Below are positions 6,767 to 64,000 of a stretch of DNA of 64,000 nt, piece after piece; position 1 is the stretch's first letter; the number at the start of each line of letters is the position of its first letter. The notes beneath the pieces were generated by a model. The model made no database searches. It was not told the origin of the DNA and saw only the letters and a list, made by a program, of their open reading frames with translations. Position numbers and translations under genes: made by a program. Origin of the DNA: Bacillota bacterium. Lineage in GTDB: Bacteria > Bacillota_I > Bacilli_A > Acholeplasmatales > Acholeplasmataceae. The stretch is from positions 4,778 through 68,777 of the forward strand of contig JAHIRQ010000171.1 of the NCBI GenBank assembly GCA_018818645.1. Direction: 5' to 3'.

Positions 6767-6802
6767 AATGAAATGGCCAATTTTGGCCTTTTCTATTTAT
6801 GA

Positions 6803-6816: not shown

Positions 6817-6868
6817 CAAATTGATTATGATATAATGAATTGAAGACTTGAAAAGAGGTATAGGCTAT

Positions 6869-9683: not shown

Positions 9684-9740
9684 AAAATAAAAAAGAAGGA
9701 AACCTAAGTTCCCTTCATAAGGCGCTTCATGCGTCTTTTT

Positions 9741-10142
9741 TTATGCTAATTTTAAGGCGTTTGTACCAAGTGATAATCCAGGATTTTCAAGGGATTGATT
9801 GATATTGAACAAATGATTGCCATAGGAATTATTATTTGCTGTAAAATCTGCTTCACTTGCATAAAGATAAACTCTTAAAGTGAAAGATCTTCCATCAATC
9901 ATATCGAAATGCTTTTCATAGGTTTGACTTGCTATCGATAAAGTAATTTCTAATAATTCATCTAAGGTTTCAATTTCAATACCAACAACGACATGAACTT
10001 GAATCATCGTACCAATAACAGTTTCTTCTTGAATTTCTACTGTGATATCTTCTGGTTCTAATATTGGAGTTTCATCTGGTTTACAAGAGATAAGACTAAA
10101 GATGAGAGCCAACATAAATAGTAATATAGTTATTTTTCTCAT
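9741..10142 (-). CDS. Small lipoprotein, unknown function, co-transcribed downstream of the pullulanase
   Basis: Signal plus lipobox LISC. Lies 4 nt after the pullulanase stop. Confidence 0.5.
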   Translation of the reverse strand: MRKITILLFMLALIFSLISCKPDETPILEPEDITVEIQEETVIGTMIQVHVVVGIEIETLDELLEITLSIASQTYEKHFDMIDGRSFTLRVYLYASEADFTANNNSYGNHLFNINQSLENPGLSLGTNALKLA

Positions 10143-47659: not shown

Positions 47660-47711
47660 GAAAAGTATTATATAATAATATTGTATTTTAGAAAAAAGGA
47701 GTTGTTCATTT

Positions 47712-48431
47712 ATGCGTAGTTCAAATCCAGTATTCAGATCGATTGAAAGAAGTGAAGCTTATGCAAGTACTGAGGCTGCATCCTATAGAGGGATAGTCAT
47801 TAAGACTGGTGGTCTATTACTAACTGCAGTTTTAAGTGGATATCTAGCACTTGCTTATCTTCCAATTGAGCAATTGTATCCTTTATTTATCGCATCTATC
47901 TTTATCGCATTGATTGCTGTTCTGGTTGCATCATTTGTACCAAGAATTGCAGCACCTTTCGCGATATTATATGCACTTGCTGAAGGGGTAGTTTTAGGTC
48001 TAGTCACTATCATCTTTGATTCCATGGCACCCGGTGTTGCACTTGCAGCAGTTGTTGCTACAGGAGCTATATTTACTGTGATGTTATTCCTTTACTCAAG
48101 TAGAACGATTCGTGTGACTCCTCGATTTAGAAAAATCATGTATGGTGTTCTTCTAGGATTCCTATTATTTATTGTGATTGGATTTATTATGAGTCTTGCT
48201 GGCGTTGCTATTGCATTCAGTGATCCAATGCTACTAGGAATTAGTGCAATATTTATTATCTTTGGAGCACTCATGTTAACACTTGACTTTGATCGTGCTG
48301 AAATGATCGTTGAAAGTGGAGCAGATAGACACTATGAATGGGTAGTTGCTGTTGGTCTTATGGTAACAATCGTTTGGATTTATTTAGAATTACTTAGATT
48401 TTTAGTTATCCTTATGGGGAATAGAAACTAA
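47712..48431 (+). CDS. Bax inhibitor-1/YccA family membrane protein
   Basis: 7-TM protein with MRSSNPVF N-terminus typical of this family. Confidence 0.7.
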   Translation: MRSSNPVFRSIERSEAYASTEAASYRGIVIKTGGLLLTAVLSGYLALAYLPIEQLYPLFIASIFIALIAVLVASFVPRIAAPFAILYALAEGVVLGLVTIIFDSMAPGVALAAVVATGAIFTVMLFLYSSRTIRVTPRFRKIMYGVLLGFLLFIVIGFIMSLAGVAIAFSDPMLLGISAIFIIFGALMLTLDFDRAEMIVESGADRHYEWVVAVGLMVTIVWIYLELLRFLVILMGNRN

Positions 48432-48450
48432 AGATATAATCAAATATAAA

Positions 48451-48667
48451 ATCGTTGATGGGAAGTAGTACTTAAGGTTAACCCTGTTTTAGAGAGCGTA
48501 GGATGGTGAAATCTATGCCAGGAACTTTAACGAATTCATCCCAAAGAGATGCTAATCACATCCGTCTTGCCTGCGTTAAGGGTTTTGAGGGCTAGAAATA
48601 TTCTAGAACTAAGGTGGTACCGCGTAAACTTACGTCCTTAGCATTTGTTAAGGACTTTTATTTTTTT
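48451..48667 (+). promoter_or_regulatory. T-box riboswitch leader (Phe) controlling pheST
   Basis: Stem I GA motif (TTGATGGGAAGTAGTA), AGAGAG box, candidate UUC specifier at 48535-48537 followed by A, T-box sequence AAGGTGGTACCGCG at 48611-48624, and terminator GTCCTTA...TAAGGAC plus T-run at 48634-48667. A TATAAT lies at 48435-48440. Confidence 0.8.
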
Positions 48668-48685
48668 ATTGAAGGAGAAGAAAAA

Positions 48686-49702
48686 ATGATCAATGAACTG
48701 ATTGAATTAAAAAAACAGGCACTTAGTGAAATTGAAGTATCGAAAACCTTGCAGGAGGTTGAAGATATTCGCGTTCAGTATTTAAGTAAGAAGGGATCTA
48801 TTTCTCTGATGATGGGAAAGCTTAGAGAGCTTTCTCCAGAGGAAAGACCTTTATTTGGTGCTGAAGTCAACAATGCAAAAGCAGAGATTGAAAACGCACT
48901 TTATCAAAAGAAAACAGAGTTAGAAAATATCGAATTACTTCAAGTACTTGCAAGTGAGAAAATCGATGTTACCCTACCGGGTTATCAGTTTTATCAAGGT
49001 AGCATTCATCCTTTGCATCAAGTCATTGAAGATCTTGAGGATTTATTTGTCGGTATGGGTTATGATGTTGCTGAAGGACCAGAGTTAGAAAATGATCATT
49101 ATAATTTCGAAATGATGAATCTAGCTAAGGATCACCCAGCAAGAGGGATGCAAGATTCCTTTTATACCGATGAAAACACATTGCTTAGAACACATACTTC
49201 ACCTGTACAAGCTAGAACGATGCTAGAAAAAAAAGGTAAACCATTAAGAATCATCTGTCCTGGAAAAGTCTATCGTAGAGATGATGATGATCCAACACAC
49301 AGTCATCAATTTACTCAAATCGAAGGATTAGTCGTTGATGAACAAATCACTTTTGCAAACTTAAAGGATGCATTACTTAAAATGGTAAGACATTTATTTG
49401 GAGAAGATAGAGTTATCCGTCTTAGACCATCTTATTTTCCATTCACTGAGCCATCAGTAGAGGTTGATGTCTCCTATGTCAAAAAGGATGGAACACTAGG
49501 GTTTATTGAAATTCTAGGTGCCGGTAGAGTACATCCTAATGTCTTGAAGATGGGTGGATATGATCCAAAACAATTCCAAGGCTTCGCATTTGGTATCGGT
49601 GTTGAACGTATCGCAATTTTAAAATATAACATTGACGATATTCGTCATTTCTATACCAATGACTTAAGATTCTTGAGTCAATTCAAGGGGGTCAACCGAT
49701 GA
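48686..49702 (+). CDS. pheS: Phenylalanyl-tRNA synthetase alpha subunit
   Basis: Class II motifs ([24 protein letters not shown]). Start at ATG 48686 after GAAGGAG. The tracked start at 48614 lies inside the T-box terminator. Confidence 0.95.
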
Positions 49703-52062
49703 TTATTCTAGAAAGCATGCTCAAAAAATGGATATCAATTCCAGAAAATATTTTAGAATTAACCAATCAAAAGATTATCGAAGTGGATGATTTTGGACCA
49801 CTCAATAGCTCAACCAATTTAGTGGTTGGTCATGTTTTAACATGCGTTGACCATCCAAACTCCGATCACCTTCATGTTACGACCGTTGATTTAGGAGATC
49901 GAGTCGAGCAAATTGTTTGTGGGGCAACCAATGTTGCAGCAGGACAATATGTTATCGTTGCTCAAGTTGGTTCAGTGCTTCCTGGTGATTTTAAAATTAA
50001 AGCATCTAATATTCGTGGGGAATCATCTAATGGAATGATTTGTTCTCTAAAAGAGCTTGATATTGATGATAAAAATGCACCAATTGAGTTTAAAGAAGGA
50101 ATTTATCATTTTGATGGACCAAGAGAAATTGGTTCATCAGGACTCAATGCATTATCCTTAGATGGTTGGAAGATGACTTTAGGTCTCACTCCAAATCGTG
50201 CAGACTTAATGTCTCATTTAGGATTTGCTTATGATGTAGCGTCAATGACTGGTCAAAAGGTAAGTATACCTGCAATAAAAATCAAAGAATCGAGCAAAAC
50301 GAATCCAATCTCTGTTGATATAAAAACAGATGGCTGTGCGAGATATTATGCAAGACACTTTGAAAGCCTAGAAGTTAAGGAATCACCTTGGTGGTTAAAG
50401 AGTGCGTTAATCGCATCTGATATTAAGCCAATCAATAATATTGTTGATATCTCAAATTATGTTCTAATTGAATATGGGACACCACTCCATATGTTTGACT
50501 ATAATAAGATTGGATCCAACCAAATTTTGGTTAGATATGCTAAAGCAAAAGAAAAAGTCGTTACATTAGATGAAATAGAGCGAGAATTAAGCAAAGAAGA
50601 TGTAGTGATTACCAATGGCAAAGAAGTGATTGCAGTTGGTGGTGTCATGGGATTATATAACACCATGATTGATGAAAAAACCACTTCAGTTGTTCTAGAA
50701 GCTGCATATTTTGATCCAAAGCATATTTTAAAAACAAGTAAGAGACTGGGGCTTAGAAGTGATTCCTCGATTCGTTTTGAAAGAGGAATTGATCCAGAGC
50801 GTGTCTATTTGGGACTAGAGAGAGCAACTGAACTTCTTGTTGAACTTGCAAATGCGAAAGTCTCAAAAGGAGTTGCTACAAAGATTCAATATGAAATCAA
50901 AAATCCTGCAGTTAAGGTCAATAAAAACTATTTTAATGAATCCCTTGGAGTTGATATTCCAGAAAATGATTTATTATCATATTTTGATGCATATAATTAC
51001 AATTATAATTTTATTACGACGGGTGACTCGTATGAAATCACCGCACCAAGCTACCGCAGAGATTTATTAATTGATGCAGATTTCCTAGAAGAAATCGCTA
51101 GAATCTATGGTCTAGACTTAATACCAATGAAATCCATCGATAAACCATTACCTGGAAAACTAACCTTTAAACAAAAGAGATTAAGAGCACTCAGACACCA
51201 TTTAGCAAACCTAGGATTAAATGAAGTAATTACTTACTCATTAATCGCACCAAGTGAGGTGTATCGCTATAATAAAATGGGTGAATCTGTATCGATTTTA
51301 ATGCCTCTTTCAGAAGATAAAAAAACTTTAAGACAAAGCTTAGTTCATGGCTTACTTGAAACAATTAACTACAATCAATCTAGACAGCTAGATTCTGTTG
51401 CAGTCTTCGAAATGGGAAACTGTTTTGCTCAGGATATAGAGCATATGCATTTAGGTCTTGCAATGTCTGGTGCTTGGCATAAAAACCCTTGGAAAAAGGA
51501 ATCATTAACACCAGACTACTACACAGTCAAGGGTATTGTCGACAGTTTATTTCTACCACTGGATATTGAACTTGAATATAAAGAGACCTCTAAGGTTGAG
51601 GGATATCATCCTTATCGTCAAGCTAGTGTATTCTATAAGAACCTAGAAATTGGAATTCTTGCTGAACTTCATCCAAATGAAGCCAAGCGCTTGAATATTG
51701 ATGCTACAGTCATATTTGAAATCAATCTAACTCCATTACTCGAAAACCCAGTCCAAGTACGTTATACCCCAACCACTAAATATCCGAATATTACTAGAGA
51801 TTTAGCAATCGTTGTTGATGAATTGGTTACTGCCTCTGAGTTGATTTCAATCATCAAGCAAACTGTCAAAAAGAATTTAGTTCAAATCGATGTCTTTGAT
51901 GTATATCAAGGGACACATATTGAAAAAGGTAAAAAATCAATCGCATTCAATCTCGTTTTTAATGACTCTGAAAAGACATTAAGTGCTGAAGATGTTGACC
52001 AATTGATGAAAAAAATAACAGGTAGACTGAGTTTTACTTACAAGGCAGTCATTCGTAGCTAA
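49699..52062 (+). CDS. pheT: Phenylalanyl-tRNA synthetase beta subunit
   Basis: tRNA-binding, B3/4, B5 and FDX-ACB domain order. ATGA overlap with pheS. Confidence 0.95.
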
Positions 52063-52064
52063 AA

Positions 52065-52087
52065 ACCTGATTCGTCAGGTTTTTTTC
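52065..52087 (+). terminator. Rho-independent terminator after pheT
   Basis: ACCTGA ttcg TCAGGT stem plus T7. Confidence 0.7.
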
Positions 52088-52132
52088 ATGGTTTTTAACT
52101 GTTTTCGTGTATAATACTATATAGGTGATAAT

Positions 52133-53149
52133 ATGCTAATCTATGATCTGACTCTAGAAGAGTTAGTTGAATTTCTAAATAAACACGGACATAAAAAGTA
52201 CCGTGCTGACCAAGTATGGAATTGGTTATATAAACAAAAGGTACTGAGCTTCAAGGAAATGAATAACCTTCCTGATGATCTCATTACTCTTCTTGAAGAA
52301 AATTTTAAGATTGAAGCTTTAGAGCTTGTCCTTAAACACATCAGTCAAGATGGAACTGTCAAGGCTTTGTATAGTCTACATGATGGACATTTAATTGAAT
52401 CGGTTTTAATGAAACATCATTATGGAAATTCAATTTGTGTAACTACACAAGTTGGATGTAATATTGGTTGCTCATTTTGTGCATCAGGTCTTCTCAAGAA
52501 GAAAAGAGATTTGACTTCAGGTGAAATCATTGCTCAAATCATTGAAACAGAAAAGATATTGAAGGAAAGAATTTCTTATGTGGTTGTAATGGGTATTGGT
52601 GAACCACTCGATAACTATCAAAACTTGATCAAATTCTTATCAACGATAAATAGCCCAAAAGGATTAGCCATAGGTGCAAGACACATTACTGTATCTACTT
52701 CAGGAATTGTTCCTAAAATTAAAGAATATGCCCAAATGGGTCTTCAAGTGAATTTAGCAATTAGCTTGCATGCTCCAAACAATGAGATTAGAACTAAACT
52801 CATGAAAATCAATCAAGCATACCCAGTCGAAGAAGTGATTGGAGCGATTAAATATTATTTAAGTGTAGCTAACCGCAGAGTCACGATTGAATACATCCTA
52901 ATCGATGGATTAAATGATACTCCTGAGGTCGCTATAGAGCTTTGTAAGGTGCTTAGAGGGTTAAATGTGTATGTGAACTTAATCCCATACAATGAGGTCT
53001 TAGAGGCCCCATATAAGCGTTCAAAAACAGAAACCATGGTAGCATTTTATGATATACTCATGAAGAATAAAATTCAAGTTACATTAAGAAAAGAACAAGG
53101 CCATGACATCAATGCTGCCTGCGGACAGCTTAGAAGTCAACACCTGTAG
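52133..53149 (+). CDS. rlmN: 23S rRNA/tRNA adenine-C2 methyltransferase RlmN (radical SAM)
   Basis: CVTTQVGCNIGCSFCASG and C-terminal GHDINAACGQL motifs. Confidence 0.9.
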   Translation: MLIYDLTLEELVEFLNKHGHKKYRADQVWNWLYKQKVLSFKEMNNLPDDLITLLEENFKIEALELVLKHISQDGTVKALYSLHDGHLIESVLMKHHYGNSICVTTQVGCNIGCSFCASGLLKKKRDLTSGEIIAQIIETEKILKERISYVVVMGIGEPLDNYQNLIKFLSTINSPKGLAIGARHITVSTSGIVPKIKEYAQMGLQVNLAISLHAPNNEIRTKLMKINQAYPVEEVIGAIKYYLSVANRRVTIEYILIDGLNDTPEVAIELCKVLRGLNVYVNLIPYNEVLEAPYKRSKTETMVAFYDILMKNKIQVTLRKEQGHDINAACGQLRSQHL

Positions 53150-53158
53150 GAGGTAAAT

Positions 53159-54115
53159 TTGAAAAAAGGCTTTATCAAAAAAATGATATCCAATCAGTAC
53201 ACATTAATTGATCAAGATTCCCATGAAGAAGTCATCGCTACTGCTAGAGGCAAACTGCGTTACATGAAAGTAACGGAAGACTCAGCTTTTTCGAAGCAAT
53301 TGACTAAAAAGACAAAAATCGAACAAAAAATAACAACCATCAGTCCGAAGGTTGGAGATTATGTCTTATATGATGATTCAGAGGATCAAATCATCATCCA
53401 AGAAATACTACCAAGAAAAAATGATTTGACACGTCCTGATGTCTGTAATGTTGATCAAGTACTCCTTGTTTTTTCAGCTATAAATCCTGAATTCAGCTTT
53501 CATCTCTTAGATAAATTCTTAATCATTATGAATCAGGAGCATTTAACTCCTGTCATTATTATTTCTAAGATTGACTTGATTGAAAAAGAACCGCTCGATC
53601 GATTAAAAGAAGACTTAAAGTATTACGAAAAAATGGGTTATGAAGTCTTTTATGTCAACTCCAAACAGCGTATTGGAATCGATGTTCTTGCCCATATATT
53701 TAAAGGCAAATTAACCGTACTTGCTGGACAAACAGGAGTCGGGAAGTCAACTTTATTAAACGCATTAATGCCTGAACTACACCTAAAAACTCAAGAGATA
53801 TCTAAGGCTTTAGGAAGAGGTAAACACACGACTAGACATACAGAATTATATAGTTATAATGGTGGATATATTGTAGATACTCCAGGGTTCTCTAAAATAG
53901 AGTTTGTAATCTTTCATGTCGATGAGATGAAAACATTTTATCCTGATTTTGAATTTCTATCACCATCCTGCAGATTTACTTCGAGTTGCTTGCATCTTAA
54001 TGAGCCCTCTTGTGCTGTTAAGGAAGGCGTAGAGTCAAAAGAAATATTACAATCTAGATATGATAATTATGTTCAGTTTTGTGAGGAAGTAAAAAATCAA
54101 AAAGAAAGATATTAG
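53159..54115 (+). CDS. rsgA: Ribosome small-subunit-dependent GTPase A
   Basis: Circularly permuted GTPase (ISKIDL ... GQTGVGKSTLLNAL ... GRGKHTTRH) and a C-terminal Cys cluster. The TTG start lies 5 nt after AGGAGG. Confidence 0.85.
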   Translation: MKKGFIKKMISNQYTLIDQDSHEEVIATARGKLRYMKVTEDSAFSKQLTKKTKIEQKITTISPKVGDYVLYDDSEDQIIIQEILPRKNDLTRPDVCNVDQVLLVFSAINPEFSFHLLDKFLIIMNQEHLTPVIIISKIDLIEKEPLDRLKEDLKYYEKMGYEVFYVNSKQRIGIDVLAHIFKGKLTVLAGQTGVGKSTLLNALMPELHLKTQEISKALGRGKHTTRHTELYSYNGGYIVDTPGFSKIEFVIFHVDEMKTFYPDFEFLSPSCRFTSSCLHLNEPSCAVKEGVESKEILQSRYDNYVQFCEEVKNQKERY

Positions 54116-54127
54116 GAGGGTTTCATA

Positions 54128-54757
54128 ATGAAAATTGCACCTTCAGTACTAACTGCAGATTTTGCAAATTTAAGAAGTGAACTCGATTCTATTTCGAATG
54201 CTGATCTTATCCATTTAGATATTATGGATGGTCATTTCGTCCCAAATATCTCATTTGGACCAGCAATTGCTAAGGAAATCGAGAAAAATACACATCTACC
54301 ACTTGATATTCATTTAATGGTAACAGATCCACTCCAATGGATCCCTAAATTTTCATTTCCTAAAACGAAATATATTACCATTCATACAGAATCAAACCAC
54401 GTCTCAGAGACAATACAAGCAATTCAAAAACAAAATATAGGGGTTGGGTTATCCATTAAACCAAAAACCCCAGTTCGTGCATTAATTCCTTACCTAAATG
54501 AAGTGAAGTTGATATTGATTATGACGGTTGAACCTGGCTTTGGTGGGCAATCCTTTATGTCTGAAATGCTTGAGAAAGTGAAGGAATTGGTCAAATTAAG
54601 AAAAGAAAATGGTCTAACATTCTCAATTGAAGTTGATGGTGGTATCAATAATCAAACCATTCTACTTTGCAAAGAAGTAGGAGTCGATATCGTTGTTATT
54701 GGTAGTCACTTATTTAACATGGAAGACCGTAAGAAAGGAATTGATTCTTTAAGATGA
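54128..54757 (+). CDS. rpe: Ribulose-phosphate 3-epimerase
   Basis: HLDIMDGHFVPN, MTVEPGFGGQ motifs. Confidence 0.9.
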   Translation: MKIAPSVLTADFANLRSELDSISNADLIHLDIMDGHFVPNISFGPAIAKEIEKNTHLPLDIHLMVTDPLQWIPKFSFPKTKYITIHTESNHVSETIQAIQKQNIGVGLSIKPKTPVRALIPYLNEVKLILIMTVEPGFGGQSFMSEMLEKVKELVKLRKENGLTFSIEVDGGINNQTILLCKEVGVDIVVIGSHLFNMEDRKKGIDSLR

Positions 54758-55359
54758 GAGTATTAGTTGTCACACATCCAACTCCTAAAAATATCAAAGA
54801 AATCATGCCTCTAAAAGACTCTGATTATATAATCGCAGTGGATCAGGCAGTTTTTTCTCTATATAAACAAAGAATCCCCATTCACCTCGCGGTTGGGGAC
54901 TTTGATAGCTTAACCAATCATGGTATGCTTGTCAATTTAAACGTGATTAGACTCAACCCTATTAAGGATGTAACAGACACCCATCAGGCATTAGTAGAAG
55001 CCGTGAAAATTAATCCAGATGAACTATACTTAATCGGTGGGATTGGTGGGGAACGCATAGAGCATTTTATGGTACATACGATGTTTTTTAATGAGTTTCC
55101 TGATTTGATTATTAAGGATGAAAATTCGACGATTTATGTTCTAGATAAAGGTATACATGAGTTTGGAGTTCAAAACCATTTTGTTTCAATCTTTGCTTAC
55201 CCAAAAGCAGTATTAACCTTAGTTGGATTTAAGTACGATTTGACTGAATATATCTTAAACACTTATGATCCATTATGCATCAGTAATGAGTTAGCTGAAG
55301 ATAAAGGATTCATAGATGTAAAAGAGGGTAAAGTGATTGTTGTTATTTCAAAGAAATAA
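54754..55359 (+). CDS. Thiamine pyrophosphokinase
   Basis: AVDQAV...AVGDFDS motif, ~200 aa, conserved position after rpe. Confidence 0.8.
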   Translation: MRVLVVTHPTPKNIKEIMPLKDSDYIIAVDQAVFSLYKQRIPIHLAVGDFDSLTNHGMLVNLNVIRLNPIKDVTDTHQALVEAVKINPDELYLIGGIGGERIEHFMVHTMFFNEFPDLIIKDENSTIYVLDKGIHEFGVQNHFVSIFAYPKAVLTLVGFKYDLTEYILNTYDPLCISNELAEDKGFIDVKEGKVIVVISKK

Positions 55360-55377
55360 GCATTTAAATAAAAAAAA

Positions 55378-55401
55378 TAAAAGGCTTGGGCCTTTTTATT
55401 T
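55378..55401. terminator. Bidirectional terminator between the thiamine pyrophosphokinase gene and rpmB
   Basis: AAAAGGC ttgg GCCTTTT stem with A- and T-runs. Confidence 0.6.
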
Positions 55402-55590
55402 TTAAACGCGTTCTAAATTGTTCTTTTTTAAAGCACGAGCAGAAACTTTTACCTTAAGTACATTCCCGTTTTCGTCCTTAATACGTACTGTCTGAAGATT
55501 GCTCTTCCATGTACGGCGAGTCGCGTTTAACGCGTGACTGCGTTTATTACCAAAAATAGTCTTTTTACCTGTTACGTAGCATTCAGCCAT
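55402..55590 (-). CDS. rpmB: 50S ribosomal protein L28
   Basis: [33 protein letters not shown] is a typical L28 sequence. Confidence 0.9.
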
Positions 55591-55890
55591 ATTCTCACTC
55601 CTAACTGCACAACCTAATTTAACATAAAAAAATTAAAAAAGCAACCAGAAAAGCAATAATCAATTAAATATTTGTTAAATCGTCTTCAGATGGATGAACT
55701 ATCTATGATTTGACTATTTTTAGCAGTAATATGATATAATATGAATGTATATGAAGCAGCATAAAAATCATTGCTTTTTGATATTTTAAATGCTATACTA
55801 GAAAAGTATAAAATTGAATTAAATTAAACTATAATATTAATCTATATTTACATACAAAACATTTTTCCCAAATATGAGGAGGATCATTTA

Positions 55891-57564
55891 ATGGCGAATC
55901 AAACAGTCAGTGGAACTCTATTTAAGAAAATGGTAACTAACGGAGCAGTAAACTTAAAAAACAATCACAAAGAAATTGATCATTTGAACGTTTTCCCAGT
56001 ACCCGATGGAGACACCGGTACGAATATGCAAATGACAATGATGGCAGGCATTAAAGAAGTAAACAGTTTGGATTCACAATCAATAGTTGATATTTCAAAA
56101 ATCTTATCACGTGGACTACTAATGGGAGCAAGAGGTAACTCTGGAGTTATACTTTCCCAATTTTTCCGTGGAGTTTATTCAGAAATAGCAAAAATTGATA
56201 ATGGATCAGCAACAGTTCAAGAATTCATCCAAGCATTAGTTGGTGGATATCAAATGGCATATCGTGCTGTCATGGATCCTGTTGAAGGAACTATCCTTAC
56301 TGTTGTTAGAGAATCTGCTGAAAAAGTACTCCGTGAATCATCCAGTCTAAATAGTGTTGAAGAAGTATTAAAATTATATTTAGAACAAGCAAAAGAAACT
56401 TTAATCAAAACCCCAGATTTACTTCCAGTATTAAAAGAAGCTGGAGTCGTAGATAGTGGTGGTGCTGGTTTCATTAAAATTATCGAAGGCTGGGTCATGG
56501 CATTAGAAGGTCAGATGCTTAATGAATCTGAAGCTTCATTTACACCATCTAAGAAAGAACATTATCATGGTGCTGAAAATTTAGGTGCTGTTGATATTAA
56601 GTTTGGATTCTGTACAGAATTTATTGTCAAACTACATAAACCTGAAAAGTTCAACGAAAACTTTATGAAAGACCCACTTTCACAAATGGGCGATTCACTT
56701 GTTGTAGTGACTGATGATGATTTACTGAAGGTCCATGTCCATACCAATCAACCAGGTGTTGCATTAACACTTGCTCAAAAGTATGGAGATTTACAAACGA
56801 TTAAAATTGAAAACATGAGAATTCAACATTCAAACATCATGGAAAATGCAGATACACCATTACACCAAGAAGAAAACCAACTGAAGATGCCTAAGAAGCC
56901 AAAAGCTAAATTTGGTATCATTGCAGTTGCTTCTGGAACTGGTATTCAAGATGCATTTAAAGAATTAGGCGTTGATTTGATTATTGATGGTGGTCAAACG
57001 ATGAATCCATCAACAGAATCATTTGTAAAAGCAATTGAATCCTTAAATTGTGAACATATCATTATCTTACCAAATAACAAAAATATCATTTTATCAGCAG
57101 AACAAACATTAGACTTATGTCCTGATCGTTCCATTAGAGTCCTAAAGACAAAGAGTATCGCTCAAGGATATTCATCACTCATGGCATTTGATCCTACACA
57201 AGAATTAGATGAAAACTTTGAATCGATGACAGAGATAGTATCCAACATGCGTTCAGGTGAAGTGACTTATGCAGTTAGAGATACAGAATTGAATGGAGTT
57301 TCCATTAAAAATGGTGATTTCATAGGGATCACTAAAGGTGAAATCAAGCTATCCACCCCTTCTAGATTAGATACTGCACTAGGATTACTTAATGATATGG
57401 TTGATATGGATCGTGAAATTATAACGATTTTCTATGGTAACGATGCAGATGAAGATGAGCTCGATAATATTGTTGCTCATGCTAAGAAATTAAACCCAGA
57501 CATTGAAGTAGAAACGATCGAAGGTAAGCAAGACATTTACACCTATATCTTCGCTGTCGAATAA
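55891..57564 (+). CDS. DAK2 (DhaL-like) domain protein, YloV family
   Basis: FPVPDGDTGTNM DhaL motif plus a C-terminal DegV-like/YloV extension. Conserved divergent arrangement with rpmB. Confidence 0.85.
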   Translation: MANQTVSGTLFKKMVTNGAVNLKNNHKEIDHLNVFPVPDGDTGTNMQMTMMAGIKEVNSLDSQSIVDISKILSRGLLMGARGNSGVILSQFFRGVYSEIAKIDNGSATVQEFIQALVGGYQMAYRAVMDPVEGTILTVVRESAEKVLRESSSLNSVEEVLKLYLEQAKETLIKTPDLLPVLKEAGVVDSGGAGFIKIIEGWVMALEGQMLNESEASFTPSKKEHYHGAENLGAVDIKFGFCTEFIVKLHKPEKFNENFMKDPLSQMGDSLVVVTDDDLLKVHVHTNQPGVALTLAQKYGDLQTIKIENMRIQHSNIMENADTPLHQEENQLKMPKKPKAKFGIIAVASGTGIQDAFKELGVDLIIDGGQTMNPSTESFVKAIESLNCEHIIILPNNKNIILSAEQTLDLCPDRSIRVLKTKSIAQGYSSLMAFDPTQELDENFESMTEIVSNMRSGEVTYAVRDTELNGVSIKNGDFIGITKGEIKLSTPSRLDTALGLLNDMVDMDREIITIFYGNDADEDELDNIVAHAKKLNPDIEVETIEGKQDIYTYIFAVE

Positions 57565-57578
57565 GAAAAAACTCTCTT

Positions 57579-57602
57579 AAAAAGGTGCTTGCACCTTTTT
57601 TA
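57579..57602 (+). terminator. Rho-independent terminator
   Basis: AAAAGGTGC tt GCACCTTTT plus T-run. Confidence 0.7.
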
Positions 57603-57605
57603 ATG

Positions 57606-57693
57606 GCGGACGTGGTGGAATGGTAGACACGCATGTTTGAGGGGCATGTGGCCGCGTTAGGCCGTGTGAGTTCAAATCTCATCGTCCGCACCA
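57606..57693 (+). tRNA. tRNA-Leu (anticodon GAG), class II with a long variable arm, encoded CCA
   Basis: Acceptor GCGGACG/CGTCCGC. Anticodon stem CATGT/GCATG with loop TTGAGGG. T-arm GTGAG-TTCAAAT-CTCAT. 3' ACCA. Confidence 0.9.
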
Positions 57694-57901
57694 AAGTTAT
57701 CTTTGATTACTCCCCGAAACCAGGGGATAATAGCGATATTTTAATGAAAAGCGACCTTATTTCTTTTGAAATAGGGTCATTTTCGTTTATCGAGTCATAC
57801 CGAGAGCAAATTTGCTTTCTCGGAAGTGACATGTTTAATTTGGGGGTAATGTGGTTCCGAACTAACCTAAACGTCAAATATTAACACTGTATCAAAAGAA
57901 A

Positions 57902-57940
57902 ACCACTTAGAGAATAGATTGCTCTAGGTGGTGTTTTTGT
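57902..57940 (+). terminator. Terminator-like hairpin in the tRNA-proximal spacer
   Basis: ACCACTTAGAG ... CTCTAGGTGGT stem (one G:T pair) followed by GTTTTTGT. Confidence 0.4.
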
Positions 57941-58053
57941 ATATGGAGTTTAAATCTCACCTGGTGGAAAATGGCGGATTTTATGTGTTTCTAAGCGACT
58001 TATCAAGTTATGATGAGTAAGGAAGTAGATCTTTGATATCCTTTGTTTGAATA

Positions 58054-58170
58054 TTGTCTATTGTCGATAATAGGTTTTCTGATTTAAAAACACGAGTCGC
58101 AATCCTAGAAAGTGATGTTAAAAACTTATTCAAAAGACATAATCCAGCAAAGGAGACCAGGAACATATGA
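58054..58170 (+). CDS. Small coiled-coil ORF (38 aa, TTG start), possibly a remnant of a phage lysis-module protein (XhlA-like pattern)
   Basis: Hand translation gives SIVDNRFSDLKTRVAILESDVKNLFKRHNPAKETRNI. The stop overlaps the holin ATG (ATATGA). The ORF is open only from 58051. Not in the ORF track. Confidence 0.3.
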   Translation: MSIVDNRFSDLKTRVAILESDVKNLFKRHNPAKETRNI

Positions 58171-58543
58171 ACGAAATAGTTACATCAATTATCGGAATTA
58201 TTGTTACTACAGTGGTCTTACCACTAGTTACACTTGGTGGGACAAAACTTATTCACTACCTCAATAGTAAGATTAAAGATGAATACGCAAGAAGAATATT
58301 GACATCAATAACATCAAGCGTAGAACGTGCTGTAAGGGTTGTTTTTCAGACCTATGTAGAGTCTTTAAAGAAGAGTGGAACATTCGATAAGGAAGCACAG
58401 AAAACCGCTCTAATCCTTGCCAAGAGGTTACAAAAGAACTTAATATAGAAGCAAAAGAGTTTATAGTTAACAACTATGTTGATTTGAATGCATATATTAT
58501 TAATCAAATAGAGGCAACAATAAGCCAGATAAAGAGCAAATAA
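58167..58543 (+). pseudogene. Phage holin, LL-H-like family, interrupted by a frameshift near 58431-58436
   Basis: The N-terminal TM (IIGIIVTTVVLPLVTLGGTKLIHYL) and AVRVVFQTYVESLKKSGTFDKEAQK match the LL-H holin pattern. The frame stops at 58448, but a shifted frame continues as ELNIEAKEFIVNNYVDLNAYIINQIEATISQIKSK to the TAA at 58541-58543. Confidence 0.55.
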
Positions 58544-58739
58544 AAAAAACGGACTAATTATTGAACCTGTCCGTTTAGCCATTATTTTTTTTAGACTGGA
58601 ATAGAATAAGAAGTTTTATCATTTTATAAAAGTTTTGTCATTTGAAGTTTATTTAAGATTCCATCAGATGTTCTAAACACTTCATTTTTTTCTATACCTA
58701 TAATCAATACTGTTGTTATTCATAACAATTTAATCTAGA

Positions 58740-60674
58740 TTAATTTGATTCCTTGTATGCTTGATAAAGTTTTGAATAGAACCCTTCAGTTTTAATCAAA
58801 TCATCATGAGATCCCTGTTCCATTAGTATACCTTCATTTAGAACCAAAAGTTCATCTGACATATATTTTGTAATATTTAGTTTATGAGAAATTATTATAC
58901 CATTTGAAGAATGTAAGTATTTTTTCATTGATTCAAGACAAGTTTTTTCTAAATATGCATCCACACTAGTCAAAGGTTCATCCAGTATGAAAGGGAACTC
59001 ACTTTCTGGTAACAAAAATCTACATAGTGCAATACGATTCTTCTCTCCACCAGATATTTTATCACCTCTTTGTCCGAGATTTCGATTATTCAATTCAACT
59101 AATTTAAAATCCGATACTAAATTATTATACTTCTCAATTAAAAAATATTCTCTCGAGATAATAAGCTTACTCATATGAAAAGCAAGCGCTTTAGTGTCGA
59201 CTTCAATGAAAAAATTAGAGATTTTCTCATATAAATTATACTTAATGAACTCAGATGGTTCTACATTGTAAATTTTTCCTAGTATCGTTAGTTCTGTATT
59301 ATTGATGTTTGAATATAGTTTGTTTGCTATTTTATTGAAAATTATTAAAAGCTCAATACTAAGAGATTCTATCAAATCCTCATAAACGCTATGTGAGACT
59401 GGTTTTTTACCCAAGGTTATGTTGAAATCTAAATTTGCATCAAATATTTCTTGTTCTTGCCCATAATACCTGATAGATGAAAATACTAAAGGTCGTGGTA
59501 TATTAGTTAAGTCAATAGTCCCCAACTTAACAAAACCAGTTTCAGGCACATTTTCACCAAGAAATAACTTGATTATTGAAGATTTTCCTTCGCCAGATAA
59601 TCCAACCAAACCGTATTTTTTGTTTAGAGATAAAGAAAAATTCTTGATTAAGTCCTTTTTAGTATGAGAAATCGTGCAGTTTGAGACTTCAAACGTATGG
59701 TTAATTGGTAAACAATGTTTTGGGTGAATATCAAGTGATTCATCTATTCTATTTTTAAAAACATTAAAGGCTTTAATATTTTCTAATAGTTCCTGAATTG
59801 ATGATAGTGGTATAAAAACTATTTGGAAATACATTAATAGAGCTAGAAATTCTGAGATAAGCAGTGATCCATTGTTGATTTCAATTACTGCAACCAAAAA
59901 GAAAATTGTGATTGCAAAACTCTTAATTGCAGTAATAGAATTTTTCCCAATAGCACTATAAGCAAACGCTTTTTTAAAAAAACCATCTCTATTATACAGT
60001 CGTTTCCTAATATTTGTCTCATGTTCTTGCACGCTAGAATAACCCATTATTGAACGACGATTCTCTATATATTCTAATACTTTTGGATTAACCTCATAAA
60101 CTACTTCACGTGCATGATTAAAATTCTTCTCGTATTTTTTATTGGTTATATGAATAATCGCAAAAATAACAATATACGACACAATTACAATTACACCGAA
60201 AGTCATTGTCCATTTTAAAGATATAATAAGTGTAGCAATTGCGGCTAATGAGATAAATATAGTATTAAAGTAATTAATAGACATGATTGTTGCTAATTGC
60301 TCAGTATCTCCAAACATACTGACCATAAAAGCACCAGATCCTCTTGATTTAAGAATACTGGAGTCTTTCTTTGAAATTGATGATAATAGTTCGTCCTCTA
60401 ATATCCTCTTTGTATTCATAAAATAAGAATTAGATATTATAGAAATTATAACTGTCAAAGCCACAAACAAAACCGCAAGTATAAAGTAATATAGGATATA
60501 TACATTATTCAATGTTAATATATTATCTATTAGATTTTTTTGTAGTAAAGGCAAAGCAAAAGAAATGACACTTAAAATAAGGCTAATTAGCGAAATAACA
60601 ATCAGTGAAAGTCGAGTTTTGTGATTTAGTTTTGATTTAACAAATGTAAAAAATTGTAGTAGTTTTTTTGTCAT
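58740..60674 (-). CDS. Fused TMD-NBD ABC exporter (no peptidase domain) with an enlarged helical subdomain in the NBD
   Basis: Six N-terminal TM helices. Walker A GLSGEGKSS, Q-loop YYGQEQ, signature ISGGEKNR, Walker B FILDEP. ATGA overlap with the upstream radical SAM gene. Confidence 0.8.
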   Translation of the reverse strand: MTKKLLQFFTFVKSKLNHKTRLSLIVISLISLILSVISFALPLLQKNLIDNILTLNNVYILYYFILAVLFVALTVIISIISNSYFMNTKRILEDELLSSISKKDSSILKSRGSGAFMVSMFGDTEQLATIMSINYFNTIFISLAAIATLIISLKWTMTFGVIVIVSYIVIFAIIHITNKKYEKNFNHAREVVYEVNPKVLEYIENRRSIMGYSSVQEHETNIRKRLYNRDGFFKKAFAYSAIGKNSITAIKSFAITIFFLVAVIEINNGSLLISEFLALLMYFQIVFIPLSSIQELLENIKAFNVFKNRIDESLDIHPKHCLPINHTFEVSNCTISHTKKDLIKNFSLSLNKKYGLVGLSGEGKSSIIKLFLGENVPETGFVKLGTIDLTNIPRPLVFSSIRYYGQEQEIFDANLDFNITLGKKPVSHSVYEDLIESLSIELLIIFNKIANKLYSNINNTELTILGKIYNVEPSEFIKYNLYEKISNFFIEVDTKALAFHMSKLIISREYFLIEKYNNLVSDFKLVELNNRNLGQRGDKISGGEKNRIALCRFLLPESEFPFILDEPLTSVDAYLEKTCLESMKKYLHSSNGIIISHKLNITKYMSDELLVLNEGILMEQGSHDDLIKTEGFYSKLYQAYKESN

Positions 60675-61954
60675 AATGTTTTATACGACTCCTCACCAAC
60701 ACAAAGAATTTTCGCAATAGTATTTTCGTTTAGATTTGCACATAACGCTAAAGATAATTCTGTCATTTTTTGTGAGTACATGCACCAATACTGGTTTTTT
60801 TCAACTGTATTTTCACTTAACATTATATCATTATATTTACATCCATGTGAGCAAGTATATCTATTCCAGCAAGATTTGCATTTGTTGGAGTATTCAGACT
60901 CTTTTACGACACGCACTGTGTGAAAAACATTACCGATTTTTGATTCTTCGATTGAAGAAAATCTATGACATGGGTACACATCTCCATGTATATCAACAGA
61001 AAATGTTGATTCACCAATTCCGCAACCAAAAGAACTGTTAATCTTTGGAATGAACAAACGACGAATATGTTCAATAAAAAGTCCAAAGGGAAAATCCTCA
61101 TGATCAATAGAATACTCTAAAACAAACAAGTATAAGTAATCTAACTGTTTTAATACTTTGTCAAAATTAACATTACTAATAGGATTAAGTATATCAGGTG
61201 GAATATTAACTTCTTTAAACCCTAAATTTAACAAGTCTTTATATAAAGTTACTAGTGAGTAGTTAAAATCGGTATAAGTTCCTCTTGCATGGACATTAGG
61301 TATATTCTCTAACAAATATGATAAATTAGATTTTATAGCATCATAAGAACTTTTTCCAGACGCCATTGGTCTTTGAGTATCTTGAATGGATTTTCCTCCA
61401 TCGATACTTACAGCCACACCAAAATCGTTTTCTTTAAAAAAATCTATAACATTTTTTTTAAAGAGGGTACCATTAGTAACAATGTGAAATTTGAACTTTT
61501 TTCTTGAATATGTTGCCTTCACATATGAACAAACTTTTTCTATTATATCGTATGACAGCATAGGTTCTCCACCGAAGAAAATAATATATGCATCACAATT
61601 TTCAGGAACCTGTTCCATATAAAAATCAATTGATTTCTTAGCAGTATCGATATCCATTAAACCTTTGCTTTTTCCATAATCTCCTTGATGAGCAAAACAA
61701 TAAGAACATCTAAGGTTACATGTATTAGCGACACATAAAAATAAACCATATCTATAGTTTTTTGGATTTGTTAGTTCATAGAAATCTTCTTCATTTGAAA
61801 CTTGTTTATACTTCACTAAGAGAGATTCCATTGCTTTGGAGTCAATATTAGTTTTGAATATATTGTATTCGTCTGCGGGAATCAAAAACAACTGTTTAAT
61901 GTCAGTAATGTATAAGTAGTAATCTTTTGAATTTTGAAAAACGTGGTATTCCAT
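60671..61954 (-). CDS. Radical SAM / SPASM-domain peptide-modifying enzyme with an N-terminal RRE-like pre-domain
   Basis: CNLRCSYC (CX3CX2C), GGEPML, and a C-terminal Cys-rich region (FGCGIG, VYPCH, CKSCWNRYTCSHGC, YWC). AAGGAGGA RBS. Confidence 0.85.
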   Translation of the reverse strand: MEYHVFQNSKDYYLYITDIKQLFLIPADEYNIFKTNIDSKAMESLLVKYKQVSNEEDFYELTNPKNYRYGLFLCVANTCNLRCSYCFAHQGDYGKSKGLMDIDTAKKSIDFYMEQVPENCDAYIIFFGGEPMLSYDIIEKVCSYVKATYSRKKFKFHIVTNGTLFKKNVIDFFKENDFGVAVSIDGGKSIQDTQRPMASGKSSYDAIKSNLSYLLENIPNVHARGTYTDFNYSLVTLYKDLLNLGFKEVNIPPDILNPISNVNFDKVLKQLDYLYLFVLEYSIDHEDFPFGLFIEHIRRLFIPKINSSFGCGIGESTFSVDIHGDVYPCHRFSSIEESKIGNVFHTVRVVKESEYSNKCKSCWNRYTCSHGCKYNDIMLSENTVEKNQYWCMYSQKMTELSLALCANLNENTIAKILCVGEESYKTL

Positions 61955-61980
61955 TAACGTAAATCCTCCTTAAGAGTATT

Positions 61981-62009
61981 GGAAGAAAGAAACACAGTTT
62001 CTTTCTTCC
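61981..62009 (-). other. Perfect 13-bp stem / 3-nt loop hairpin between the precursor ORF and the maturase gene
   Basis: GGAAGAAAGAAAC aca GTTTCTTTCTTCC. No U-tract follows it on the coding (minus) strand. Confidence 0.7.
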
Positions 62010-62015
62010 GTATTT

Positions 62016-62138
62016 TTATGCTATTACCTTTGGCCAACTATCAGCAGATCCACAACCAGCATAATTACATGCCAAAACTAGCTGATTATCTCTCACAGCT
62101 GACTTAAACTTTTGCAACAATAAAGGTATTCCCTTCAT
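62016..62138 (-). CDS. 40-aa candidate RiPP precursor peptide (MKGIPLLLQKFKSAVRDNQLVLACNYAGCGSADSWPKVIA)
   Basis: Translated by hand from the minus strand. Strong SD (GGAAGGAGGGGAGAG, 62141-62155). Lies 61 nt upstream of the radical SAM gene. Absent from the ORF track, which lists nothing shorter than 60 aa. Confidence 0.6.
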   Translation of the reverse strand: MKGIPLLLQKFKSAVRDNQLVLACNYAGCGSADSWPKVIA

Positions 62139-62366
62139 GTCTCTCCCCTCCTTCCACTTGAATTATATGAAATAATAACAACACTACAGTTATCATTACC
62201 ATATTAATCTGTGTGAAACCCCCAAAACGTTATTTATATGATTTATTTTTATCACAAGAGTACAAGATTGTCAATAAAAAACTTAAAATATATCTATTTA
62301 TTAATAAAAAAATATATCTGTTTGATTTGAATTTTATCCATTAATTTAATCAAATCTTAATCTATA

Positions 62367-62389
62367 AAGACCTCAACAGGTCTTTTTTT
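62367..62389 (+). terminator. Orphan plus-strand intrinsic terminator in a divergent intergenic region
   Basis: AAGACCT caac AGGTCTT stem plus T7. No plus-strand gene ends here. Confidence 0.4.
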
Positions 62390-62510
62390 AATATATCTAT
62401 CTGTATATTGTGTTGAGTGATATAATTAGTGTACATGGCGACGTAGAAGTTATTATTTTTTTGAATGAAAAAATGGTTTTTACTATTTTAATAAAAGGAG
62501 GGATAATTTT

Positions 62511-64000
62511 TTGAACAGTGACAACTCTGCAAAAGATGAACTATGTGAATTATCAAAAAGAGTAAAAGATAGGCTAGAAAAAAATAGATTCCCCTTTTTG
62601 CATATATTAGTACAAAATATAATGGACTTCCATTTTGTTAAAGTTTTCGCTGAAAAGGATAAGACAAGCTATCAAATACTTGAGAATGATATAACTTCTT
62701 ATCCTGCTATATTGTATTCAATGAAGGGATTAATAACTTATGGTCACGGATTACCTTTAGTTCACAGAGACAAACATTACCCAAAGACAGTTTTCGATTA
62801 TATATTTGAGTTTAACACTTCCAAAATGATAGATAGAATAATAGACATTTATAATGACGGTCAAATTGATATATTAAAAACAGATATTAACACATTTTTT
62901 TGCAAAAGAAAATATGATATTTTTTATGAAATATTTGATGTTTGGGATGCCTTAGAATATATAAAACCTGCTTTTGAAATACTAACACAAAGTCAATTAT
63001 TACTAGAACAAATGAGTATCGTTGTACATAAGTTTGATCAGCACTGGATCCAGTATTCACCAAATGATGATATAGATGAGTATTTCTTAGAACGAGCAAA
63101 CCAATATGTTGATTCATTTGATGAAACATCGTTTTTTAGTGATGATACCATTTTTGATGGAATTACATTTAAAGAAATAAAGGAAGTTCTAACAGTTATT
63201 GTTATGATGTGCTTTCGAAACATAAATTATGCCTATGTTTCTAAGCGAAAGTACCCTAATTTACATTTAGTTGATTTGCTACCACTTAGTGTACAAATAA
63301 TTACTTTGATTAAAAACATAAATTTAGCATTTGATATAGATGCTAATAAAGTGGATCAATTCATGCGAATATTATTAGTAGATTTGGCAGAGGATAATAA
63401 TTTTACTGAACCTTTGAAGTATCCAATTCTTCTTAAAGTCTCCGATGATTTTGTTTTGGTGACTGCTTCATCAATACTTACAAACCCTTTTCCCTCACTC
63501 TTTCAAATGCTTCAATCAAGATGCACTAAAGATTGGAGTAAAGCAATATTAATGCGTGAGAAAATATTTAGAGATAAACTATATGATATTTTTAACGATA
63601 CCCAATTTATGAAGATAAACCAACCAATAAAAATAAGTAAGAACACCATGATAATTACCGATATTGATGCATTAATTTTTGACAAAAAACATAAAGTGTT
63701 AGCACTGTTTCAATTGAAATGGAATGAAGAATTTAGCAACTCCATGAGAGCAAGAAAGAGCAAAATGAAGAACTATATAAACGAAGGAAATACATGGGTT
63801 GAGCGAGTAAGCGGTATAATAGACAATTCAAATGTAGAGTATTTGTCTAAAACATTTGGAATAAAAAAATCCGATTTACAACATTGCAGTAAGTATTTAT
63901 TTGTAATAGGAATGTATGCAAATGAATTTACAACTGATATTGAATATGATTCGAGAGCTTGTTGGCTAAGTTTTTCTAGAATTAAACTAATTAAGAAATT
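62511..64000 (+). CDS. Large orphan protein (over 496 aa, 3' end outside the window) with a C-terminal PD-(D/E)xK / NERD-like nuclease motif
   Basis: No stop codon was found by hand translation across 1490 nt, in AT-rich DNA. The TTG start lies 9 nt after GGAGG (62497-62501). An extended -10 (TGaTATAAT) is at 62418-62426. The motif is REKIFRDKL...ITDIDALIFDKKHKVLALFQLKW. The ORF is missing from the track because it has no in-window stop. Confidence 0.55.
   Translation, partial: MNSDNSAKDELCELSKRVKDRLEKNRFPFLHILVQNIMDFHFVKVFAEKDKTSYQILENDITSYPAILYSMKGLITYGHGLPLVHRDKHYPKTVFDYIFEFNTSKMIDRIIDIYNDGQIDILKTDINTFFCKRKYDIFYEIFDVWDALEYIKPAFEILTQSQLLLEQMSIVVHKFDQHWIQYSPNDDIDEYFLERANQYVDSFDETSFFSDDTIFDGITFKEIKEVLTVIVMMCFRNINYAYVSKRKYPNLHLVDLLPLSVQIITLIKNINLAFDIDANKVDQFMRILLVDLAEDNNFTEPLKYPILLKVSDDFVLVTASSILTNPFPSLFQMLQSRCTKDWSKAILMREKIFRDKLYDIFNDTQFMKINQPIKISKNTMIITDIDALIFDKKHKVLALFQLKWNEEFSNSMRARKSKMKNYINEGNTWVERVSGIIDNSNVEYLSKTFGIKKSDLQHCSKYLFVIGMYANEFTTDIEYDSRACWLSFSRIKLIKK

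Follow-up and report, generated by a model that had tools for sequence, protein, structure and literature searches.

Systems that combine a short precursor peptide, a SPASM-domain maturase with a fused RiPP recognition element (RRE), and an ATP-binding cassette (ABC) exporter are a well-known type among the ribosomally synthesized and posttranslationally modified peptides (RiPPs). One of the radical S-adenosylmethionine (SAM) maturases of this kind, CteB, reportedly carries seven rather than eight SPASM cysteines, with one auxiliary cluster that has an open iron site for binding the substrate Cys. Another, PapB, joins the sulfur of a Cys residue to the β-carbon of an Asp (PMC9413430, PMC12373016) and accepts Cys-Xn-Asp motifs with n from 0 to 6 (PMC9413430). 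A locus comparable to both is found in the stretch of DNA described here (the window), 64,000 nucleotides of a Bacillota bacterium assembly (GCA_018818645.1; contig JAHIRQ010000171.1, positions 4,778 to 68,777).

The locus is a three-gene operon on the minus strand, in the order precursor, radical SAM/SPASM maturase, and ABC exporter. Its first open reading frame (ORF), at positions 62016 to 62138 of the window, is very likely the genuine precursor of a modified peptide. It belongs to a new precursor family that, judged from sequence comparisons, would form part of a ranthipeptide-like RiPP system, in which Cys sulfurs are crosslinked to side-chain carbons; a probability of roughly 0.55 can be given to this assignment.

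The precursor gene and its homologs

The precursor gene (62016 to 62138, minus strand) encodes 40 amino acids followed by a stop codon (MKGIPLLLQKFKSAVRDNQLVLACNYAGCGSADSWPKVIA). The initial annotation of this DNA, made from the letters alone, had the coordinates and the sequence of the peptide right and left its strand unstated; translation assigns it to the minus strand, the plus strand across the same interval being riddled with stops. The CGSAD (C29-X3-D33) and SWPK (W35-P36-K37) segments that it singled out are both present in the translation. The ATG start codon (62138 to 62136) is preceded, at a spacing of 8 nt, by the Shine-Dalgarno sequence AAGGAGG (62147 to 62153, minus strand). A promoter-like element, TTGACA-18-AAAAAT, lies about 105 nt 5' of the start codon (62245 to 62274, minus strand), to which little weight can be given because the consensus scan returned no more sites than expected from shuffled sequences. 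The core motif is found only once in the whole window. The exact peptide is encoded on four contigs (the window and L001 to L003) that share at least 99.98% nucleotide identity and represent one strain, so that they offer no usable evidence from synonymous changes.

Searches with the maturase protein retrieve approximately 48 clusters of homologs with 32 to 54% identity (E ≤ 1e-68), which constitute a distinct family. Its nearest member is only 54% identical to the window protein, and below the family the scores drop sharply to generic SCIFF-, PapB-, and nif11-like maturases of about 30% identity. DNA was fetched around nine of these homologs and searched for short upstream ORFs. An ORF with the same core is found upstream of the enzyme gene in all nine distinct loci that have upstream DNA, and directly upstream of it in eight, the exception being locus L093. 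The cores of this enzyme-anchored set include CHYAGCGATDSWP in Caloranaerobacter azorensis and CYYAGCGVADSWP in a metagenome-assembled genome (MAG) of the Tissierellia, as well as CYYEGCGADDGWP, CTYAGCGSADSWP, CDYHGCGGSDSWP, CNYAGCGLINDGWP, CEYEGCGTQDSYP, and CYYEGCGSGDGWP.

Additional members come from a DNA-pattern scan of metagenome contigs and from a profile search with the precursor alignment, which bring the family to 40 distinct cores. Tepidimicrobium xylanilyticum, Butyrivibrio sp. INlla18, and a Desulfovibrionaceae genome are among the sources known by name. Wherever the contig is long enough, the approximately 40 precursors adjoin an orthologous maturase, except in L151 and L142 (see below). 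The precursor-maturase-exporter operon is found in Tissierellia, Lachnospiraceae, a Desulfovibrionaceae genome, and other hosts; the Butyrivibrio locus has the same three genes. A scan of a contig collection with the enzyme alignment, keyed on generic motifs such as FFGGEP, returned no family members but only SCIFF-like maturases of about 30% identity (L004 to L083).

The precursor family has no curated protein-family model. None of the Pfam or NCBIfam models matches the window precursor or seven of its homologs, and all precursor homologs are annotated in the databases as hypothetical proteins. Genome-mining tools would probably file the cluster as ranthipeptide-like or RRE-containing. A literature search for core strings (GCGADDGWP, GCGSADSWP, and similar ones) returned no relevant paper, and strain INlla18 is not mentioned in the main text of the Hungate1000 bacteriocin paper.

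With just 40 codons in AT-rich DNA, the ORF could be viewed as a chance open frame that is neither translated nor modified. This is highly improbable in view of the strong ribosome-binding site in front of it and of some 40 homologs in distant taxa, which are encoded beside an orthologous maturase and retain an invariant 13-residue core although their leaders and followers have diverged. The initial proposal, namely, a RiPP precursor whose N-terminal leader precedes a C-terminal core and whose gene lies beside that of a radical SAM/SPASM maturase, is supported in both of its parts.

Several loci show variant arrangements. In L093 (3248 to 6302), the aromatic position of the core is occupied by Tyr (…DSYP), and a 476-residue protein of the β-lactamase-fold/DUF3471 type, which could be a processing hydrolase, is encoded between the precursor and the maturase. 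In L150 (426 to 4223), the precursor and exporter genes are intact and the orthologous maturase gene is in two pieces of 220 and 210 amino acids, separated by three reverse-strand ORFs (540, 117, and 109 amino acids) that by size and order resemble an IS66-type insertion. L151 (302 to 3216) and L142, which have the same sequence, encode a precursor with the core CNYAGCGSADSWPKFTP and an orthologous exporter; the 815 nt between them contain no maturase gene or detectable remnant of one, which looks like a decayed cluster or one whose enzyme is encoded elsewhere. Much longer N-terminal regions precede the core in P0153, a 105-residue precursor from the Desulfovibrionaceae, and in the precursor of up to 151 residues from L096 (4503 to 4958), a high-GC contig in which no exporter is encoded directly downstream. 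These two regions share an (A/V)IRF(I/V)(R/K)G(M/L)L segment and match no family model.

Conserved residues of the precursor

Alignment and position statistics divide the precursor into three regions, all encoded on the minus strand. Residues 1 to 23 (62070 to 62138) form the leader, with the motif PLLxxxFK(S)xV, which includes Lys12. The corresponding family motif is [LI][IL]xxx[LIV]-K-[EK]-x-[VL], and in 29 of the 40 leaders, a Lys precedes the first Cys by 12 residues; the description of the leader as basic and amphipathic holds, and its motif is conserved in the family. The core extends from C24 to P36 (62031 to 62069; CNYAGCGSADSWP) and reads C-x-Y-x-G-C-G-x2-D-S-W-P in the alignment. It is followed by the variable KVIA segment (K37 to A40; 62019 to 62030). 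Such followers comprise 1 to 34 amino acids in the family and are conserved neither in sequence nor in length, but they are never absent, and no family member stops at Pro36.

The consensus of the 40 cores is C-x-Y-x-G-C-G-x2(3)-D-[S/G]-[W/Y]-P. Seven residues, C24, Y26, G28, C29, G30, D33, and P36, are found in every core. Residue 34 is Ser or Gly, residue 35 is Trp in 38 cores and Tyr in 2, and the Cys-X3-Asp arrangement pointed out initially is retained throughout as C29 and D33, with a spacer of three residues in 38 cores and of four in the other 2. Position 37 is occupied by Lys in only 5 cores and otherwise by L, S, G, W, P, T, E, R, N, Q, M, or A, and the family alignment contains no other conserved Lys within the core. 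Thus, of the five residues for which the initial annotation had suggested an alignment check, C24, C29, and D33 are invariant and W35 is nearly so, whereas K37 is not conserved. It mentioned neither the invariant Y26, G28, G30, and P36 nor the fact that the invariance of C24 equals that of C29, which leaves two donors to be explained.

The search methods bear on these counts. The pattern scan preset the residues C, Y, G, C, G, D, and P together with the first two bases of the residue-35 codon, so that Cys was still admitted there, and the profile search favors the motif as well. The nine enzyme-anchored loci form an unbiased set and show the same invariance as the 40 cores.

The maturase

The second gene of the operon (60671 to 61954, minus strand), preceded by the Shine-Dalgarno sequence AAGGAGG (61965 to 61971, minus strand), encodes a radical SAM/SPASM peptide maturase of 427 amino acids, as indicated by Pfam and NCBIfam matches, alignment, and fold. 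It matches the Pfam models Radical_SAM (PF04055, E = 5.5e-18) and Fer4_12, while the Pfam SPASM model stays below threshold. In an alignment of 29 family enzymes, the radical SAM cluster motif CX3CX2C (C79-x3-C83-x2-C86) is invariant, and so are seven SPASM cysteines, C311, C329, C359, C362, C368, C372, and C391; G324, four residues before C329 by the alignment account, is conserved. By analogy, a SPASM domain with seven cysteines would correspond to the situation in CteB. PADLOC searches of the locus show only generic similarities to radical SAM (viperin) and ABC ATPase proteins.

Comparison with the NCBIfam models shows that the top-scoring ones are those of enzymes acting on Cys-containing peptides. 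The window protein scores 241 bits with the nif11-peptide maturase model (cut-off, 519), 239.6 bits with the PapB model NF047865 (cut-off, 340; residues 71 to 379 covered), 210 bits with the SCIFF maturase model TIGR03974 (cut-off, 425), and 198 bits with the QhpD model (cut-off, 453). The 29 family enzymes give a uniform picture with these models; every one of them matches the PapB model at E ≤ 1e-30, the best value, 5.1e-71, being that of the window protein. Scores are far lower with the models of enzymes that form carbon-carbon bonds or cyclophanes (DynA, 95; YhhB, 92; FxsB, 62 bits; cut-offs, 370 to 450), of sactisynthases (RumMC, 89; GggB, 76; StsB, 63 bits; cut-offs, 625 to 720), and of the anaerobic sulfatase-maturating enzymes (anSME; approximately 73 to 104 bits).

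The closest solved structure by sequence is that of CteB (5WGG, E = 1.8e-46). An AlphaFold model built from the family alignment (mean predicted local distance difference test [pLDDT] score, 89.8; predicted template modeling [pTM] score, 0.90) is likewise most similar to CteB, with a template modeling (TM) score of 0.80, followed by anSME (0.67) and then by ChlB, TigE, and SuiB (0.54). The Foldseek alignment to CteB comprises 440 columns and is nearly full length, so that it probably includes the N-terminal domain of CteB. Residues 3 to 58 of the model show the order strand-strand-strand-helix-helix-helix, with pLDDT values above 90 in most blocks. This N-terminal domain has the predicted shape of a leader-binding RRE, and no RRE or PqqD model from Pfam or NCBIfam matches the protein. 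Among the possibilities raised initially, that of a thioether-forming maturase agrees with these data, as the best matches of the enzyme, among both models and structures, form thioethers.

The other initial suggestion, a streptide-like carbon-carbon crosslink between K37 and W35, fares poorly. Trp and Lys are indeed two residues apart in the window peptide, and the maturase shares the SPASM type with StrB. However, Lys at position 37 is confined to the 5 cores mentioned above, the KxxxW motif places Lys upstream of Trp, in the reverse order (PMC11851443), and no streptide-maturase model is found among the best 25 of 68 NCBIfam matches. SuiB, with its low TM score, superimposes on the model with a root mean square deviation of 13 Å and is absent from the PDB sequence matches of the maturase. 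Such a link has a very small probability; the lack of conservation of Lys, set beside that of Cys and Asp, favors a predicted thioether over it.

The second rank of anSME among the fold matches, along with the general difficulty of predicting radical SAM function (PMC10288494), would be in keeping with chemistry that forms no crosslink, such as epimerization, methylation, or oxidation of Cys to a formylglycine-like residue. The low anSME model scores, the absence of a sulfatase C/S-x-P-x-R motif from the core, and the presence of two invariant Cys residues and an invariant Asp, which better fit a donor/acceptor logic, make this improbable.

Predicted modification of the core

In the proposed thioether pathway, the leader, through its hydrophobic-Lys-Glu/Lys helix motif (within residues 1 to 23), would be bound by the RRE-like N-terminal domain of the maturase. 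Cleavage of SAM would yield a 5'-deoxyadenosyl radical that abstracts a hydrogen from a side-chain carbon in the core, and a Cys sulfur would then be bonded to the activated carbon. The likeliest bond, to which about even odds can be given, would connect the sulfur of C29 with the β-carbon of D33 and close a five-residue C-G-x-x-D ring like that of the Cys-X3-Asp substrates of PapB. The retention of both Cys residues and the Asp in every core supports a donor/acceptor substrate, and the two C-X4-D variants would be compatible with PapB-type linking because n = 4 falls within the range that PapB accepts. C24 probably forms a second crosslink, for which Y26 is the leading candidate partner and S/G34 or W/Y35 are alternatives. 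The modified peptide would leave the cell via the cotranscribed ABC transporter. Given the free variation on either side of the segment C24 to P36, the mature peptide probably corresponds to this segment of about 13 residues; as no peptidase is encoded in the window, it would be trimmed by unlinked proteases.

Sequence similarity does not fix regiochemistry, which leaves room for α-carbon links. In a sactipeptide-type product, the Cys sulfurs would be joined to the α-carbons of residues such as G28, G30, S/G34, or W35, and D33 would serve recognition or bioactivity. The small residues at positions 28, 30, and 34, which flank Cys and Asp, would suit such an arrangement; Cys-Gly sactionines are known (StsA), the CteB structure entry itself is titled as sactipeptide thioether formation, and the sactionine-forming GggB and QmpB look like ranthipeptide synthases (PMC10288494). 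Against this stand the sactisynthase model scores, far under those of PapB, SCIFF, and QhpD, and the invariant Asp at a set distance from Cys, a hallmark of PapB and QhpD substrates, so that a sactipeptide appears unlikely.

Several points weigh against the thioether (ranthipeptide-like) product as well. Its chemistry is deduced by comparing sequences and models, and the enzyme scores under the curated cut-off of every named family; its identity to CteB is 23 to 24% over the fold alignment. Radical SAM chemistry is unpredictable at anything less than very high identity, and GggB and QmpB form α-carbon links despite their ranthipeptide synthase-like sequences (PMC10288494). There is also some bias in the conservation counts, because many cores among the 40 were retrieved with a pattern or profile that presupposes the motif. 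Two invariant Cys residues face a single invariant acidic residue, so that a pure PapB scheme leaves C24 unexplained, and the invariant Y26, [W/Y]35, and P36 hint at additional or different chemistry. Finally, no leader peptidase has been identified, and none is encoded in the window.

Residue 35 is aromatic in every core, and Pro and one or more further residues invariably come after it. It could take part in a carbon-carbon (cyclophane) crosslink, either alone or in addition to a thioether, within W-P-X or between the Asp β-carbon and Trp. A precedent is WprB, which links Trp-C5 to Arg-Cγ in W-P-R motifs, and in a related precursor family, a lone WxR/K motif is found (PMC11851443). W-P-K occurs in the window peptide. 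However, K or R directly follows W-P in just 9 of the 40 cores, and Gly does so once; W-P-K/R was rejected as conserved chemistry on this ground. WprB is a twitch-domain enzyme without Aux I cysteines and requires a separate WprC (PMC11851443), whereas the window maturase has seven SPASM cysteines and a fused RRE-like domain, and the ORF list shows no WprC-like small gene in the operon. The cyclophane models score 62 to 95 bits, compared to about 240 bits for the thioether group, and the two invariant Cys residues would be left without a role. A cyclophane at this position is rather improbable.

Under the preferred thioether assignment, the combination of two invariant Cys residues and one invariant Asp with an invariant Tyr and Trp/Tyr-Pro rules out a mere freyrasin copy as the product and makes a new ring topology or acceptor plausible. 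A more daring and still doubtful version is a compact bicycle of about 13 residues that would combine the PapB-like Cys29-Asp33 thioether with a crosslink of a type new to this enzyme clade (e.g., from the Cys24 sulfur to Tyr26 or Trp/Tyr35) and act as a secreted signal, gained horizontally by a wall-less Mollicute; the signaling part of this version draws on the LytTR/histidine kinase or XRE-type regulators next to some of the loci. The tight 13-residue core and the minimal three-gene cluster make the family an easy target for heterologous reconstitution, and cultured carriers exist, namely, Caloranaerobacter azorensis, Tepidimicrobium xylanilyticum, and Butyrivibrio sp. INlla18. A possible use lies in the field of stable scaffolds, for which small peptides stapled by thioethers are of interest.

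Operon organization and the exporter

The gap between the precursor and maturase genes contains a perfect 13-bp stem-loop (61980 to 62010, minus strand), revealed by inverted-repeat and RNA folding analyses (−20.1 kcal/mol, z = −3.5). It is not followed by a U-tract on the sense strand. A strong hairpin is found at the equivalent position in 12 of 16 related loci, with different sequences and, in several of them, a subsequent U-run. In bacteriocin and RiPP operons, precursor genes are commonly followed by hairpins that attenuate or stabilize the transcript. The one described here probably acts in the same manner and sets the ratio of precursor to enzyme.

The third gene (58740 to 60674, minus strand), which overlaps the maturase gene by 4 nt, encodes an ABC exporter of 644 amino acids with transmembrane and ATPase domains (Pfam ABC_membrane and ABC_tran). 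An orthologous exporter is encoded 3' of the maturase in nearly all related loci. The ATPase domain contains an insertion of about 90 residues (residues ~430 to 530) between the Walker A and signature motifs; the Pfam ABC_tran match stretches 132 profile positions over 224 residues, and the matches to NCBIfam models fall into two stretches. Exporters of the related loci are similarly long (634 to 656 amino acids), except for that of L093, which has 576.

The initial annotation found no double-glycine site in the precursor and no explanation for the removal of its leader. This is borne out, and in addition, Pfam shows no C39 peptidase domain in the window exporter. Among the loci seen, an obvious device for cleaving the leader is encoded only in L139 (approximately 4229 to 10030, minus strand). 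Its 102-residue precursor, P0134, has an extra N-terminal double-glycine leader (…LEAVNGG) and an LLGG sequence inside a long follower, and a second ABC transporter, with a C39 peptidase domain, is encoded after the usual exporter.

Genomic setting and possible role

The host is an Acholeplasmataceae-like Mollicute. Housekeeping proteins from the window fall into clusters of at least 90% identity with those of "Tenericutes bacterium HGW-Tenericutes-2" and an Acholeplasmataceae MAG, and positions 45883 to 57693 align to the latter with 85% nucleotide identity. The last aligned position coincides exactly with the 3' end of a tRNA-Leu(GAG) gene (57606 to 57693, plus strand), beyond which the two genomes share nothing, and the GC content, about 0.345 before this boundary, is about 0.29 after it. 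The RNA scan, the synteny break, and the GC drop all mark the tRNA 3' end as the left boundary of a low-GC variable region. Because of this break and drop, the region, and the peptide cluster with it, has probably been acquired horizontally. The window showed neither an integrase nor a flanking repeat, a direct-repeat search within it gave nothing convincing, and an Rfam scan of positions 57000 to 64000 found tRNA only. A variable region beside a tRNA gene of an Acholeplasmataceae-like genome is an unusual setting for such a system; to our knowledge, reports of radical SAM peptide clusters in Mollicutes are few.

The locus contexts fit a secreted, bioactive product, which might be a bacteriocin or a signaling peptide. 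In L100 and L094, there are extra ABC-2 type or ATPase transporter genes, typical of producer immunity, and L100 also encodes BlaI/BlaR1. The double-glycine leader and the additional C39-peptidase transporter of L139 likewise point to secretion. A LytTR response regulator and a histidine kinase are encoded directly upstream of the cluster in L087, and XRE and XRE-TPR regulators are found near the Butyrivibrio-type cluster of L157. These regulators are generic and differ from locus to locus; a quorum-sensing role can be suggested.

Other features surround the operon. A 543-residue protein, encoded on the plus strand from about 62511 to beyond 64000, divergently from the precursor, has a TTG start codon after GGAGGG and is complete in L001 (97 to 1728, minus strand). 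It has no Pfam or PADLOC match; a motif reminiscent of PD-(D/E)xK nucleases (DIDALIF...LFQLKW) was noticed by eye only at its C terminus. None of the other family loci has this protein, which therefore probably has no connection with the peptide system. Between this gene and the promoter region of the precursor, at positions 62366 to 62385, there is a GC-containing hairpin of 8 bp with an A-run on one side and a T-run on the other; it resembles a plus-strand terminator, yet no plus-strand gene ends there. On the other side, a 93-residue ORF (58167 to 58448, plus strand) is convergent with the exporter gene; its match to the phage holin family PF09682 is weak and lies below threshold (E = 0.0065).

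Comparison with known systems

QhpD, like PapB, links Cys to Asp or Glu, in its case through thioethers, and its model is among those matched by the window maturase. Its substrate QhpC is said to have Cys, Asp, and Trp close together as well. However, QhpC is an enzyme subunit (quinohemoprotein amine dehydrogenase gamma), whereas the substrate here would be a small exported peptide, and neither dehydrogenase subunits nor a QhpG-like flavoprotein is encoded nearby.

The WprA/WprB and StrA/StrB systems resemble the locus in the W-P-K motif of the window peptide and in the fact that all of the maturases are radical SAM peptide enzymes; they differ from it in the scarcity of K/R after W-P in the family and in the low similarity to SuiB, respectively. 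In spacing and order, Y26-x-x-C29 corresponds to the N-x-x-C motif of NxxcB, a crosslink type listed in PMC11851443. By this analogy, the Tyr β-carbon is a conceivable acceptor, although it would take the place of an Asn, and the window contains no shp/rgg context. Pairing within C24-x-Y26 is a further possibility.

CteA/CteB (thermocellin) and other SCIFF systems provide the closest structure by both sequence and fold. CteB forms a thioether from a substrate Cys, and its fused N-terminal RRE, radical SAM barrel, and seven-Cys SPASM domain would all have counterparts in the window enzyme, the RRE on the basis of the structural model. In contrast to the SCIFF precursors, which have six Cys residues, the window precursor has two, and it has no SCIFF motif and matches no precursor model; unlike CteA/CteB, the operon includes a dedicated ABC exporter.

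The PapA/PapB (freyrasin) system resembles the locus in its SPASM maturase, whose model is the joint-best match, and in the conserved Cys-X3-Asp substrate motif. PapA, however, carries six repeats of this motif and the window precursor a single C-X3-D unit. The second invariant Cys of the precursor is without an acidic partner, and the invariant Tyr, Gly-Cys-Gly, and [W/Y]-Pro elements have no counterpart in PapA. In contrast to the PapA-derived product, the one formed here would be a peptide of about 13 residues.

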